Shown: positions 29,968-59,603, counted from the first letter of the stretch. The stretch: DNA of 64,000 bases from Clostridia bacterium (GCA_017462965.1 JAFTQC010000022.1:96242-160241), one strand, 5' to 3'. The notes: a model not told the origin generated them from the letters alone. A program made the numbers and translations.

Positions 29968-30331
29968 TGGTGGAGATGAGGAGAATCGAACTCCTGTCCG
30001 AAAATTCTTCCACATGAACCTCTCCGAGTGCAGTTTATCTTTTTAGATTCCCAAAGGTTAAACGCCGACAAACAGGCTTTTAATTTTGGTAACTTTATAA
30101 ATACCCACTATCTCAAAGTTTTGATAGTTTTGTTTCCACTTTAGATGACGCTTGTTCTTAATGAAAGTGGCACAAAAAGACAAACGTAGCCGCAACTAGG
30201 CAGCTAAAGCAACTTTATTGTTGTTAATTATTTATAATTCTCACATTTTTTAGATGGCCAAGTGAGAATCCATCACTCGCTATTCATCCTTCTAAATATC
30301 CGTCGAAACCTTTACATCCCCGTGTTTAGAA
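29968..30331 (-). ncRNA. ssrA: tmRNA (SsrA)
   Basis: Minus-strand 5' GGGGATGTAAAGGTTTCGACGGATA..., tag reading frame ending ...VALAA-stop (GTT GCT TTA GCT GCC TAG), 3' T-arm/acceptor GGAGTTCGATTCTCCTCATCTCCACCA; promoter TTGCAA-N17-TTATAAT upstream. Confidence 0.9.
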
Positions 30332-32879: not shown

Positions 32880-32938
32880 CAAGAGGGACGCCCCTTTTTG
32901 TGAAAATATTTCACAAAAAGGGGCGTCCCTCTTGCTGG
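32876..32938. repeat. Perfect ~57-bp palindrome of GGGACGCCCC family
   Basis: gcaagagggacgcccctttttgtgaaa-ata-tttcacaaaaaggggcgtccctcttgc. Confidence 0.85.
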
Positions 32939-33421: not shown

Positions 33422-34210
33422 TTAAACAGTGAAGTAACGTCCTTCATCGAGAGCTATAGTGTTGCCGAAAACCTTAGATGCTTCGCGAACGTATTTGTTC
33501 ACATCTTCTTCGGGCCAGAAGTGAGTCAGTGCCAGCTTTTTGACACCAGCTTGGAGTGCAATCGTGGCGGCTTGCTTTGCGGTCAAATGGTTATTGATTT
33601 CAGGGTAACCATAGGATTCGAGCAGGCTTGATTCGCAGATGAGCAGGTCAGCTCCTTTTGCAAAGTCTGCAATCTTGTCTTTTGCAGCGAAAGAAGTGTC
33701 GCTTGTATAGACGAGTGACGAATTCTTGGATTGGACTTTGACTGCAAATGTGAGAATATTGTGCTCTGTTGTGCAGAACGTAAGTGTGAGATTGCCAAGC
33801 TCTATTTTGGTATCCTCGGTTAGAGGATGGTATTTGGCAAAAGCGTTTTGCTCAGTGCAGATATCCCGAGAAATCGAGATAGGGGAAGCTGGTAGATAGA
33901 TGTCAAGAGGCTTCTTGAGTCGCCCAAGCTTGTGAAAAACGTATGACGCATACTGGAAGATGAAGATATCGTTGTAGTGATCTCGGTGCAGGTGAGAAAG
34001 GACAATGGTTAATCCATCAAGAGAATCTGGAAATTTCAGATTATTGTGGATTCCACTGCCGCAATCAAGCAGAATCTTTGTTTGTCCATCCCTGACAAGA
34101 AATCCAGGGCAATGATGGGCACCAGTACTGTATGGGGATTGAGTGCCAAGAACTTTAAGCTGCATGAGATAATTCCTCCCTTTGCTTGTACGTAATTGTA
34201 TACTAATCAT
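33422..34210 (-). CDS. MBL-fold metallo-hydrolase
   Basis: HLHRDHYND (HxHxDH) motif. Confidence 0.75.
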   Translation of the reverse strand: MISIQLRTSKGRNYLMQLKVLGTQSPYSTGAHHCPGFLVRDGQTKILLDCGSGIHNNLKFPDSLDGLTIVLSHLHRDHYNDIFIFQYASYVFHKLGRLKKPLDIYLPASPISISRDICTEQNAFAKYHPLTEDTKIELGNLTLTFCTTEHNILTFAVKVQSKNSSLVYTSDTSFAAKDKIADFAKGADLLICESSLLESYGYPEINNHLTAKQAATIALQAGVKKLALTHFWPEEDVNKYVREASKVFGNTIALDEGRYFTV

Positions 34211-34391
34211 AAAACCAATGTAAGTTCGCAGAAATTATATCAACATAATACCGGTATTTCAACATAATTCACAAATTTTATCGAAAGCTTCCTTAATTTT
34301 ATCAGGATTTTCATCACTCGTATCAAGTGTCCATAAATTTCCTTCGTTATCAGTATTTATAATGTTTTGTGCAAGTTTGATTTTAGAATCG

Positions 34392-35378
34392 TTACCGAAG
34401 TTGACTAGACACACGATGAGAAATTTGTTCTTCTGTTAAACCGCGTAATTTAAGGCGTTCATGCTGTTTTTCTTCATTAACTGTCATAATCAAAATATTA
34501 TTATTACTATAGTGGAGAAGCCCTTTTTCAAGGAGTAGAGCAGCATTAATTAGAATTATTCCTTTTTTATTGTACATTTCTCGGCGCATACGTTCTTCAA
34601 GTGGATTTTGCATAAGTTCGTCTAATTGTGCTAATTTTTCTGGGTCATTAAAAACAATTTCTCCAAGAATTTTTCTGTTTATACTACCGTCAGGATTTCT
34701 GATGGCTTCGCCAAATTTCTTTACAATAGTTTCTCTAAGCTCAACATATTTTGGTTCTTTAAGTGTACTTAAAATATCATGTGAAATTTTATCTAAATCA
34801 ATGTTATGAACTTCGATTCCTTTTGCTTTTCCAAGTTCTACAAATTTCTCTGTTACATAAGATTTGCCAGAACCTATAGTTCCAGTAACTGAGATTATAT
34901 ATTGTCCAAGCATTTTTTCTTCTAATTTTTGTTTAACATGCATTGGTACAAATGAAATAAGTTTTCCTTGTTCTTTTGTCATTGCTTTTACAACACTAGA
35001 GCTTACGTGAGAAAATTCTGGTGCAGTAAAAAGAGGAATTGTTTCAAATTGCATTCCTTGACTTTTTTGAGCAAGGTGAAGTGTATATTCATCATTCAAA
35101 TCTTTAGAATTTCTGATCCCTCTAATAACAACATCAATGTTATTTTCATAGACAAAATCAACAAGTAATCCGGTGTAACTAACAACTTTTATATTAGGCA
35201 AATGCTTAGTGCAATGTTTTACCATGTCTAATCTTTCTTCAAGTGTAAAAGTATATTTTTTTTCGGGATTGACGCCAATTCCTATAGTTAAATTAGGGAA
35301 CAAACGATAAGCTCGCTCAATTAAGTCAAGATGTCCTCTGGTAATTGGGTCACCAGAAAATGCATAAAGTGCGTTCAT
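34392..35378 (-). CDS. Bifunctional phosphopantetheine adenylyltransferase / dephospho-CoA kinase (CoaD-CoaE fusion)
   Basis: N-terminal MNALYAFSGDPITRGHLDLI (PPAT H/TxGH motif); C-terminal GTIGSGKSYV P-loop of CoaE. Confidence 0.75.
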   Translation of the reverse strand: MNALYAFSGDPITRGHLDLIERAYRLFPNLTIGIGVNPEKKYTFTLEERLDMVKHCTKHLPNIKVVSYTGLLVDFVYENNIDVVIRGIRNSKDLNDEYTLHLAQKSQGMQFETIPLFTAPEFSHVSSSVVKAMTKEQGKLISFVPMHVKQKLEEKMLGQYIISVTGTIGSGKSYVTEKFVELGKAKGIEVHNIDLDKISHDILSTLKEPKYVELRETIVKKFGEAIRNPDGSINRKILGEIVFNDPEKLAQLDELMQNPLEERMRREMYNKKGIILINAALLLEKGLLHYSNNNILIMTVNEEKQHERLKLRGLTEEQISHRVSSQLR

Positions 35379-35419
35379 AAAATCACTCCTTTCAACAGCC
35401 TTAATTATAGCACAAAATT

Positions 35420-35575
35420 TTGTACAAAGGGACGGGGCTTTTTTCGGGACAAAGGGACGGTTCTTTTGTCCTTTTTTTATAAAAAATAATTAGTAAATAT
35501 TGAGTAATAAAAAAGGACAAAAGAACCGTCCCTTTGTCCCGAAAGAGAACCGTTCTCTTGTCCTTTTTTTATTTA
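35420..35575. repeat. Compound inverted repeat: two GGACAAAGGGACGGTTCTTTTGTCC hairpin arms around AT-rich core
   Basis: Left arm 35441-35466 is exact reverse complement of 35508-35533. Confidence 0.8.
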
Positions 35576-35579
35576 GCAA

Positions 35580-36230
35580 TTATCTTGCACGGAGCAAAAT
35601 GAATTGCGTTCTGGCTTCATCCAAGATTTGGTTGAAGTTTTTGTCCAGTCGTTCTTGCGTTTGCTCGAACTGATAGAAGCATTCGCCCATTGTCGCGTGG
35701 TGCTTAGCGGTGATTTCTTGAAGTACAGGATTATTTCTGAGTTTCTCGGATGCGTTTTCGAAAGTGCAGGTAAGGTCGCGATCATAGTAAAGGGCCATCA
35801 GATTTGCATCGAGTTTGTCGCACATGTAGGCAAATTGTGCTTCAGGTGTTTCGTGCCCATCGAATTCGAGAATAAGCTTTTCGTATTCTTCTGCTTTGAG
35901 AAGGGGAGAAAGAAGCTTGTGTACGGCTTGATGTCCGCTATCAAGCTTGTCCTCGGCAGATACACCGTCAAACGGGGTGATATCAGAAATGAGGATTTCT
36001 TCGAGTTCGTGTACAGCAAGCATAAGAATTACTTTTCGAAGGTCGATGGAGTATTCGAATTCGGAGTCGATTGCAATTGCAAGCATGCATGTGCTGAAAA
36101 TGTGTTCAGCAACGCTTTCAAGACGTTCGTGTGAGACGTTCCACTGTTTCCAACCGCTTCGTACGAGCGTTTTGAGGTTGTTGGTAAGATAGTAGAAATC
36201 AAGTACAGTTTTGCTGCTATGATTGTTCAT
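35580..36230 (-). CDS. HD-domain hydrolase (YfbR-like 5'-deoxynucleotidase family)
   Basis: AEHIFSTCMLAI...LMLAVHELEEILISDITPFD HD motif. Confidence 0.65.
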   Translation of the reverse strand: MNNHSSKTVLDFYYLTNNLKTLVRSGWKQWNVSHERLESVAEHIFSTCMLAIAIDSEFEYSIDLRKVILMLAVHELEEILISDITPFDGVSAEDKLDSGHQAVHKLLSPLLKAEEYEKLILEFDGHETPEAQFAYMCDKLDANLMALYYDRDLTCTFENASEKLRNNPVLQEITAKHHATMGECFYQFEQTQERLDKNFNQILDEARTQFILLRAR

Positions 36231-37343: not shown

Positions 37344-37420
37344 AAGCAATTCATCAAGAGGGACGCCCCTTTTTGTGAAAATTTTTCACAAAAAGGGGCG
37401 TCCCTCTTGATGAATTGCTT
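37344..37420. repeat. 77-bp near-perfect palindrome of GGGACGCCCC family
   Basis: aagcaattcatcaagagggacgcccctttttgtgaaaa / ttttcacaaaaaggggcgtccctcttgatgaattgctt. Confidence 0.85.
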
Positions 37421-38594: not shown

Positions 38595-38795
38595 TATCAA
38601 GAGGGACAGCCCTTTTTTGAGAAATGCATCAACAGGGACAGCCCTTTTTGAGAGAGTGCATCATCAACGGGGACAGCCCTTTTTGATAAACAAGTAAAAA
38701 TAATTTGCACCATTATTAATATTTACATTTATCAAAAAGGGCTGTCCCCGTTGATGATGCACTCTCTCAAAAAGGGCTGTCCCTCCTGATACGTT
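38595..38795. repeat. Compound MITE-like inverted repeat of GGGACAGCCC family (~63-bp arms, ~40-nt AT-rich centre) plus extra solo unit
   Basis: Arms 38625-38690 and 38731-38795 complementary with 2 mismatches. Confidence 0.8.
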
Positions 38796-38871
38796 TGTCG
38801 AAAAATAGCGAGCAAAAGTGATTGAAATTTGGCATAAATGCTAGTAAACTGGAACAGTCGCGCAAATAAAG

Positions 38872-42630: not shown

Positions 42631-42663
42631 ATCGTCCATTTAACGGACGTCTCTCGTGGATGA
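42631..42663. repeat. GACGGACGTC-type palindromic unit
   Basis: atcgtccatttaacggacgtctctcgtggatga; related copies at 49360-49390 and 57430-57463. Confidence 0.7.
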
Positions 42664-44728: not shown

Positions 44729-44770
44729 AAAAAATGGACAAGGGGACGGTTCTCTTGTCCATTTTTTTTA
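44729..44770 (+). terminator. Rho-independent terminator (repeat-family hairpin)
   Basis: aaaaatggacaag-gggacggttct-cttgtccatttttttt. Confidence 0.7.
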
Positions 44771-44912
44771 GCAAGAGGCAGCAAGAGGGAACGTCATCAA
44801 CGGGGACAGCCCTTTTTGATAAACATAAACATTAATAAAAGTGTAAATTATTTTTACTTATTTATCAAAAAGGGCTGTCCCCGTTGATGACGTTCCCTCT
44901 TGCTGCCTCTTG
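44771..44912. repeat. Compound MITE-like inverted repeat of GGGACAGCCC family (52-bp perfect arms, 37-nt AT-rich centre)
   Basis: 44771-44823 exact reverse complement of 44861-44912. Confidence 0.85.
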
Positions 44913-49359: not shown

Positions 49360-49425
49360 CGTCCATTTGACGGACGTCCGCCATGGACGAAAAAAAGGAC
49401 AAGAGCCCCGTCCCCTTGTCCTTTT
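49360..49425. repeat. GACGGACGTCC unit followed by GGACAAG-AGCCCCGTCCC-CTTGTCC hairpin
   Basis: Read directly; second hairpin doubles as terminator of 49424 gene. Confidence 0.75.
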
Positions 49426-51289: not shown

Positions 51290-51403
51290 AAGTGTATGCC
51301 TCCTTAAAAATTTTTATTTGTCGTCGGGTAGGGCTAATAGAGAAACGTGGAGAACGGTAAAACTGAATTAAATACGTATGAATATTAACATAATTTTAAA
51401 AAG

Positions 51404-51470
51404 CTAGCAATGGGGACAGCCCTTTTTGCTAAAAATTTCAGCAAAAAGGGGCGTCCCTCTTGCAAGATTC
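51404..51470. repeat. Hybrid imperfect palindrome (GGGACAGCCC left / GGGGCGTCCC right)
   Basis: gcaatggggacagccctttttgctaaaa / ttttcagcaaaaaggggcgtccctcttgc. Confidence 0.7.
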
Positions 51471-53699: not shown

Positions 53700-53730
53700 A
53701 AGTATTGAATCAACCCCCGGGGAAGGAGTC

Positions 53731-53823
53731 ATCAAGAGGGACAGCCCTTTTTGATAAAGGTAAATGCTAATTAAAGCGCAAATTTTGTTTATTTTTTATC
53801 AAAAAGGGCTGTCCCTCTTGATA
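53731..53823. repeat. Compound inverted repeat of GGGACAGCCC family (28-bp arms, ~36-nt AT-rich centre)
   Basis: atcaagagggacagccctttttgataaa ... tttatcaaaaagggctgtccctcttgat. Confidence 0.8.
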
Positions 53824-57429: not shown

Positions 57430-57463
57430 ATCGTCCATTTGACGGACGTCCCTCGTGGACGAT
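57430..57463. repeat. GACGGACGTCC-type palindromic unit
   Basis: atcgtccatttgacggacgtccctcgtggacgat. Confidence 0.7.
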
Positions 57464-57477
57464 TTTATAAAAATATC

Positions 57478-59566: not shown

Positions 59567-59603
59567 AAAAAAGGACAAAAGCCCCGTCCCCTTGTCCTTT
59601 TTT
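59567..59603 (+). terminator. Rho-independent terminator (repeat-family hairpin)
   Basis: aaaaaaggacaa-aagccccgtcccc-ttgtcctttttt. Confidence 0.6.

Follow-up and report, generated by a model that had tools for sequence, protein, structure and literature searches.

A probable REPIN/BIME-type doublet of hairpin repeats between an HD-domain gene and coaDE in a Clostridia bacterium

REP, BIME and REPIN sequences, together with the RAYT (TnpA-REP) transposases, were reportedly described in Proteobacteria by Nunvar in 2010, by Bertels and Rainey in 2011 and by Ton-Hoang in 2012, and to our knowledge nearly all work on REP and REPIN sequences and on the domesticated transposases that go with them has been done in that group. 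In the IS200/IS605 elements and for the E. coli TnpA-REP, the transposase reads a hairpin on single-stranded DNA. A REPIN is an extragenic, palindromic element of about 100 bp that consists of two inverted REPs and a variable spacer (bioRxiv 10.1101/2021.07.10.451892). Quentin et al. 2018 (PMC6006769) equate TnpA-Y1 subclass 2.1 with the Group 1 of Bertels, tabulate its motif features in their Table 1, and state that their survey detected no REP-like sequences near subclass 2.1 genes. RAYT Group 1 is reported from Clostridia by Bertels et al. 2017 (PMC5581495). The TIRYTs, as outlined by Di Nocera et al. 2013 (PMC3733652), are encoded by genes flanked at a fixed distance by inverted repeats, some of which share GGGGWSAS. 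In the literature consulted (PMC3733652, PMC6006769), the TIR families are only moderately abundant and occur in a few species, mainly Proteobacteria and Acidobacteria, and some form dimers and clusters (PMC3733652). The CGTC REPs of Di Nocera et al. 2013 (PMC3733652) are described as having an unpaired end tag, an 8-9 bp stem that starts with AT pairs, a loop of 4-5 nt and a CCA tail, with no associated transposase.

The locus studied here lies in a stretch of 64,000 nt from a Clostridia bacterium (GCA_017462965.1, JAFTQC010000022.1:96242-160241), which we refer to as the window. Positions 35420-35575 hold four related units with the layout [U1>][U2>]-spacer-[<U3][<U4]. A first-pass annotation had placed a compound repeat here between coaDE and an HD gene, and the neighbors are as it proposed: a gene for an HD_3/YfbR-like phosphohydrolase upstream on the sense strand (35580-36230, minus strand; PF13023, E = 1e-28) and a CoaD-CoaE fusion gene downstream (34392-35378, minus strand; PF01467 and PF01121), both of which are context and lie outside the element. 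The sequence GGACAAAGGGACGGTTCTTTTGTCC occupies 35447-35471 on the plus strand (U2) and its exact reverse complement occupies 35515-35539 (U3), which bears out the proposal that two hairpin copies are inverted around an AT-rich core. The 40-nt core given there corresponds to the gap between the ends of the inner units, which measures 43 nt. The perfect arms reach further than the annotation had them, 36 nt each (35442-35477 and 35509-35544), and leave an AT-rich spacer of 31 nt (35478-35508, TATAAAAAATAATTAGTAAATATTGAGTAAT) in a palindrome of 103 nt (35442-35544). Each perfect arm comprises the unit, T/A runs and 5 further bases. On the plus strand the left arm reads U2 and then a T run and is terminator-like, and on the minus strand the right arm, which holds U3, reads GGACAAAGGGACGGTTCTTTTGTCC and then T6. 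The spacer is unique to this locus: neither the rest of the window nor the fetched loci contain it again.

Two degenerate units that the first-pass annotation had left unresolved flank the palindrome, and with them the outer arms reach 66 nt at 80% complementarity. U1 (GTACAAAGGGACGGGGCTTTTTTCG, 35422-35446, plus strand) belongs to family D1 and is 80% identical to U2; its 5' arm and GGGACGG core are intact. U4 (35539-35570, minus strand, reading A7-GGACAAGAGAACGGTTCTCTTTC; unit proper 35539-35563) has a core mutated to AGAACGG and lies 9 nt past the HD stop codon. In both, the 3' arm is shortened and runs straight into the 5' end of its inner neighbor, U2 and U3 respectively, such that perfect inner arms stand against degenerate, 3'-truncated outer units. 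Directly downstream of U1 on the sense strand is TGCTATAAT (35404-35412, minus strand), read from the sequence as the extended -10 element of a predicted coaDE promoter.

In its hairpin form the 25-nt unit makes 12 pairs around a CGG loop, a number of which are G-T pairs, and each arm is itself a hairpin, as the annotation had stated. RNA folding of the two strands, which it had suggested as a check, gave z = -11.8 and -10.8, and the single-stranded DNA fold (-47.8 kcal/mol) has z = -9.5, in each case with 0 of 200 shuffled controls equally good. As RNA, the unit hairpin is worth -13.6 kcal/mol on the GGGACGG strand and -7.1 kcal/mol on the complement; in these models it is stable on the GGGACGG strand only. 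With perfect 36-nt arms and this fold, cruciform extrusion by 35420-35575 would be physically plausible.

Taking this anatomy together with the dispersal, transposase linkage and turnover described below, we consider it likely that 35422-35570 is a REP doublet of the REPIN/BIME type, a non-autonomous element mobilized through hairpins on single-stranded DNA that doubles as a terminator. The nested symmetry had been taken as a sign that one repeat inserted into another or that the element transposed replicatively. The general idea holds up, since units form a dispersed intergenic family, are linked to a Y1/HUH gene in other genomes and turn over between species. The argument from nesting does not: a REPIN or BIME is built of two inverted palindromic REPs, and hairpin arms belong to that design and are alone no evidence of nested insertion. 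The data show the anatomy, that the doublet belongs to the family, the confinement of the units to intergenic DNA, their order, their link to a transposase in other genomes and their turnover between related species. We infer that this copy moves, that its own genome encodes the transposase, which strand is used and where it is cut, and that the units act as terminators.

The unit is no chance match. Allowing up to 3 mismatches, the 25-mer occurs 5 times in the window against 0.00 expected, and GGGACG occurs 26 times against 4.8 expected. Across the 33.5 kb of chromosome at 30545-64000 there are 35 GGGAC(A)G cores, all 35 between genes and spread over 18 of 32 intergenic regions, which include co-directional, convergent and divergent gene pairs; the prophage half of the window (30.5 kb, left) has 1 core only, and the sequence of this genome that was examined amounts to the window plus about 8 kb. 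When opposite units share an intergenic region of the window, the order is always '+ then -'. Many units have an A run before the hairpin and a T run after it. The sub-types differ in their 'handle' (GGACAAG..CTTGTCC, TTGGAAATT.., AGCAAGAG..), and one design is kept throughout. Whole doublets also recur with their spacers: a 58-nt palindromic element is present three times (32880-32937, 37352-37412 and 51402-51463) and a 97-nt palindromic element three times (38661-38757, 44794-44890 and 53728-53822), with 84-96% identity between copies. At the gathering threshold, Rfam returned nothing in the window but the tmRNA elsewhere in it, and at a relaxed threshold it returned only generic hairpin (miRNA precursor) models far below their cut-offs. 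Literature searches with unit sequence strings gave only chance matches in eukaryotic papers.

Several smaller observations concern the units and their surroundings. Differences between copies of the 58-nt and 97-nt elements are mirrored in both arms (AGCAAGAG..CTCTTGCT versus ATCAAGAG..CTCTTGAT). The divergent promoter region at 38600-38800 holds three direct units (..GGGACAGCCCTTTTTGA..), an AT-rich spacer and two inverted units. A unit at 59573-59597 fills the 59-nt gap between mcsB and clpC in the ctsR-mcsA-mcsB-clpC cluster, with the weaker hairpin on the sense strand (-15.1 versus -20.8 kcal/mol). Tandem 'handle' words with a period of ~10 nt precede the unit core (AGCAAGAGGC AGCAAGAGGG..; GCAGGAGTCAGCAAGAGGCAACAGGAGGCGGCAGGAG..) at 44770-44795 of the window and at 1770-1840 of a contig from a close relative (L033). 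A separate recurring word, CGTCCATTTGACGGACGTCC..TGGACG, which forms the hairpin CGTCCGT..ATGGACG, is intergenic and sometimes lies beside main units (42633-42649, 49360-49392 and 57431-57466, and about 1730-1750 in L033). The prophage-like block on the plus strand, about 5000-29900, adjoins the tmRNA gene (29968-30321, minus strand); in a sister species (L002) the tmRNA is directly followed by chromosomal genes and the prophage is absent.

The unit is also found far beyond this genome. A metagenome scan with GGGACGGTTCTYTTGTCC gave at least 120 loci, with 149 hits among the loci listed, where a pattern of this length would be expected to match some tens of times by chance in a collection of that size (an estimate), and the contigs of the listed loci range from 24 to 71% GC. 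A large share of the hits, 114 of 149, also carry the 5' arm, a part of the unit outside the search pattern. An inverted partner follows 7-62 nt downstream in 78 of 149 hits and lies upstream in 0, and identity to U2 over 25-27 nt is found at more than 15 loci. Unrelated contigs (L052, L075, L090, L112, L133 and L144) show the same fusion of a truncated to a full unit as U1/U2 and U4/U3, in which a unit that lacks its last GTCC(C) runs into the 5' end of a complete unit, often on both arms; this junction may mark a cut-and-join site. The two arms of a doublet agree at 6.58 of 9 positions, compared with 4.57 for shuffled partners. This similarity would fit unit-wise replication of doublets and lineage-specific variants alike and is given little weight.

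To find proteins shared by these loci, all ORFs of the 120 loci were clustered, and a transposase was then sought by profile search. The largest shared ORF family is a protein of about 250 aa that matches Y1_Tnp (PF01797, E = 1e-11 to 1e-17), and by profile it is encoded in 11 of the 120 loci listed. Its sole NCBIfam hit is the REP-associated tyrosine transposase (RAYT) model, below the cut-off of that model, and its best PDB profile match is the E. coli TnpA-REP 4ER8, a weak one (E = 0.083); a single-sequence PDB search with the transposase found nothing. Inverted flanks are seen at L053, L069, L071, L096/L105/L120/L130, L168 and L171-173. Wherever both flanks are visible, GGGACGGTTC is on the left (upstream) and GAACCGTCCC on the right (downstream) irrespective of the orientation of the gene; the gene-less doublets have their ends in this orientation too.

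A reciprocal test started from the protein. A search with the transposase gave at least 6,429 clusters, some with the JGI name 'REP element-mobilizing transposase RayT' and others named 'transposase' at NCBI in Clostridia, Oscillospiraceae, Butyrivibrio, Tepidanaerobacter and C. aceticum. Three homologues were chosen regardless of their flanks, from Clostridium aceticum, a Clostridia MAG and Tepidanaerobacter. In 3/3 homologues GGGACGGTTCT precedes the start codon by about 75 nt, and in 2/3 the inverted copy comes right after the stop codon. Among viral contigs, a core flanked the homologue in 1 of 5 loci, a sample too small and too divergent to count. The stems vary by genome (GGACAA/TTGTCC, GAGTCA/TGACTC, ACACA/TGTG) while the apex GGGA-CGG-TTCT is constant, which is as expected of a transposase recognition element. 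The protein has the motifs NHVH, FQ and Y[IV]HxNP (YIHxNP) and a C-terminal HTH (HTH_23) in a length of about 240-250 aa; judged by these features, it fits the type variously called RAYT Group 1, TnpA-Y1 subclass 2.1 or 'TIRYT'. Profile searches of the 64-kb window and of the loci from the same and sister species found no Y1 transposase gene. The transposase-linked loci of the metagenome scan all have 44-66% GC, higher than this genome, and C. aceticum (34% GC), the one genome of low GC in which the gene is seen, shows few dispersed units close by. The window sub-types GGGACGCCCC and GGGACAGCCC have only GGGAC(A)G in common with the transposase-linked apex.

Set beside the described systems, the family is closest to REP and REPIN sequences, with which it shares short imperfect palindromes, extragenic location next to gene 3' ends, high local density, a predominance of doublets of about 100 nt in which inverted units enclose a variable spacer, and, in other genomes, inverted units that bracket a Y1/HUH gene in a REPtron-like arrangement. 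It departs from classical REPs in four respects. The conserved motif is the hairpin apex GGGA-CGG-TTCT rather than a 5' GTAG tag, and since no unit examined had a GTAG tag beside it, the family is not a canonical GTAG-REP; T/A runs give the units the look of terminators; the linked transposase is the longer subclass 2.1/Group 1 protein with an HTH tail rather than one of Group 2/3; and classical REPs are lineage-specific, whereas this unit is common to genomes of very different GC. The protein shares with the TIRYT/subclass 2.1 group the motifs NHVH, FQ and YIHxNP, an HTH_23-like tail at the C-terminus and a size of some 250 aa. The window variant GGGGACAG fits the TIR motif GGGGWSAS exactly, and GGGGACGG is off at one position. 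Compared with the TIR families, which could be set against ours by description only, the units here are self-complementary hairpins, reach a very high density in a Clostridia genome and conserve an 11-nt apex across many genomes. As in CGTC-tagged REPs, head-to-head dimers predominate and CGTC is present, in the reverse strand of the core (CCGTCCC); that assignment was rejected, as the CGTC here is part of the hairpin apex, the stem measures 11-12 bp, a CCA tail is absent and the units go with a transposase. The ends of IS200/IS605 elements and PATEs likewise go with a Y1/HUH fold and have imperfect hairpins that are probably read on one strand, but here there is no TnpB partner, a single hairpin, inverted, makes up both ends where those elements have a left and a right end of their own, and the transposase belongs to the RAYT branch and not to IS200 proper. 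Readings of the structure as a CRISPR array or an attC site were rejected.

A comparison of orthologous sites shows that the family is not static. The strains of this species are nearly clonal: exact-protein look-ups recovered contigs from other samples that are 100% identical to the window, and no strain-level empty site was seen. The sister species L002, whose CoaDE is 89% identical, keeps the coaDE promoter TGCTATAAT and has a single unit, compared with four in the window, at the exact position of U1 and at the same 19-nt distance from TGCTATAAT; judged by position, U1 is the ortholog of that unit. U2-U4 are absent from L002, and its upstream gene is different. In the relatives L033 and L034 (HD protein 84% identical, same upstream gene), the context of the HD stop codon is kept, the sequence then diverges immediately, and the contigs go on with different units of the same family and end inside repeats; U4 does not follow the HD gene in L033, the close relative. 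Synteny with these relatives is only partial at this locus. Three further orthologous sites hold different family members in L002 and in the window, and where the window has the 190-nt compound palindrome (38600-38790), L002 has about 45 unrelated nt between well-conserved flanks, a case that resembles an empty site. Over 13 kb of orthologous sequence, about 14 cores in the window compare with 4 GGGACGG matches in L002. More distant homologues of the HD gene (L035-L039) have other neighbors and ordinary terminators and are uninformative for this locus. The site differences in L002 and in L033/L034 show turnover of the family between species, with members that appear, disappear or give way to others over the time in which species diverge. 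The search for empty sites proposed in the first-pass annotation was thus partly rewarded, in that orthologous sites carry different units or none, although no true empty site was found at this locus. The observation that the annotation had named as refuting, the same sequence at syntenic loci of relatives, was not made.

A mechanism for the REP doublet can be outlined by analogy with the characterized Y1/HUH systems. The transposase would recognize the hairpin on single-stranded DNA, and the GGGACGG strand is suggested as the active one because the G-T pairs keep the stem intact. The enzyme would cut and rejoin at the hairpin, and '+ then -' doublets that lack a transposase gene would be copied in trans to new intergenic sites, with new copies often landing next to or into existing units. 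At 35420-35575, a young perfect doublet (35442-35544) would sit between two older, truncated units; the perfect inner arms and the diverged outer units, one of them orthologous to that of L002, indicate such a two-stage history. The young doublet could have arrived by insertion beside the older units or could have formed by local inverted duplication or conversion, and it is the unique spacer that keeps the latter option in play.

The local route is the strongest of the alternatives, although we regard it as unlikely. It accepts that the units belong to the family and holds that the doublet arose in place, either from an existing unit that was duplicated together with its T run in inverted orientation, by template switching or snap-back synthesis at the hairpin, or by conversion between arms, with no insertion by a transposase. 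The 31-nt spacer is unique, the arms are perfect over 36 nt, which is 5 nt beyond the unit, and no target-site duplication is visible. Hairpin-templated copying would also give symmetric arms of truncated plus full units, as recur in L133 and L052. That doublets can spread as units is indicated, however, by the 58-nt and 97-nt elements, which recur with their spacers at 84-96% identity, and the '+ then -' order, which is kept strictly, is also that of the ends on either side of the transposase gene.

Transcription termination could be a second property of the doublet. Like intrinsic terminators, the units combine a GC-containing hairpin with a T run, and a terminator scan picks out several of them, including a minus-strand site at 35540-35514 and, on the plus strand, U2. 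U3 is probably the intrinsic terminator of the HD gene, located just upstream of the coaDE promoter: its hairpin of 12 pairs followed by T6 is the sole terminator-like site there, which makes it the likely end of the HD transcript, and the pattern scan found no other terminator between the HD stop codon and the coaDE promoter. An account based on termination alone, in which a bidirectional pair of intrinsic terminators was selected in place and the similarity of the hairpins is convergence, seems quite improbable to us. It would agree with the inner units scoring as terminators, one per strand, with the A run before and the T run after the hairpin in many units, and with the strand asymmetry caused by G-U pairs, which is as expected of selection at the RNA level. 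Against it, there is no plus-strand gene for U2 to terminate, the units are linked to a transposase, and 25-27 nt of identity across genomes of 24-71% GC cannot be convergence. What is conserved here is the unit sequence and not the shape alone, and units are also present where no transcript need end. Divergent promoter regions have units as well (at 38.6, 51.4 and 57.4 kb), and several units lie beside ordinary, unique terminators, both of which suggest that termination is a by-product and not the raison d'etre of the family.

The position of the structure directly upstream of the coaDE promoter, with U1 abutting the -10 element, would suit a regulatory element of coaDE, whether it acts as an attenuator, as a small RNA or as an operator palindrome for a specific regulator. 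We hold this to be very improbable, since no Rfam family rises above noise, with generic hairpin models only, the same units lie beside functionally unrelated genes in 18 intergenic regions, and relatives keep the promoter and not the doublet. Readings of the structure as a riboswitch or attenuator were rejected. Least probable of all is a classical MITE, derived from an insertion sequence with a DDE transposase and carrying TIRs and a target-site duplication: a non-coding palindrome of roughly 100 nt with inverted ends would look the part, but the borders of 35442-35544 and those of the element at 38.6 kb show neither direct repeats nor a target-site duplication, and the only recurrent neighboring transposase is of the Y1/HUH type.

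Returning to the REPIN/BIME reading, what may be new about the family is how densely it populates a Clostridia genome, that its units are self-complementary and carry T runs, and that its apex motif is kept across phyla. We tentatively raise the possibility, which we would put somewhat below an even chance, that subclass 2.1/Group 1 transposases have cognate REP/REPIN populations, from which four corollaries would follow. The recognition hairpin would keep the apex GGGA-CGG-TTCT in different phyla and over a GC range of 24% to 71%; some gut Clostridia would carry the units at extreme density, with more than half of intergenic regions occupied; the hairpin-plus-T-run modules would be portable and act as mobile bidirectional terminators; and the truncated/full junction would mark the cut-and-join site of the transposase inside the 3' arm. 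If the family is as it appears, this large RAYT group of Clostridia, so far described with no cognate repeats, would gain a DNA partner with an invariant 11-nt hairpin apex, a Gram-positive gut genome would have more than half of its intergenic regions colonized, and a selfish element that supplies ready-made terminators would be suggested. In practical terms, the repeats also account for assembly breaks, as in L033 and L034, and for spurious calls of small ORFs.

Some features of the neighboring genes were recorded in passing. The CoaE frame of the fusion ends with ..SSQLR-stop, and the +1 frame runs on for about 45 residues (FGNDSKIKLAQNII..NLWTLDTS..) that resemble the normal C-terminus of dephospho-CoA kinase (window 34392-34414 and 34259-34414, minus strand; 6960-7130 in L002). 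The frame arrangement around CAA CTT CGG TAA is conserved in this sister species, and the sequence may reflect a programmed +1 frameshift or a split gene. Downstream of coaDE, a gene with a metallo-beta-lactamase fold (33422-34165, minus strand) has a precomputed hit to Anti-Pycsar Apyc1 (PF23023); it is chromosomal and not in the prophage. The closest CoaD-CoaE fusions outside the lineage (L003-L011) are 44-56% identical and are labeled as candidate-phyla-radiation bacteria, Spirochaetes MAGs and archaeal MAGs, which is odd for a Clostridia gene.
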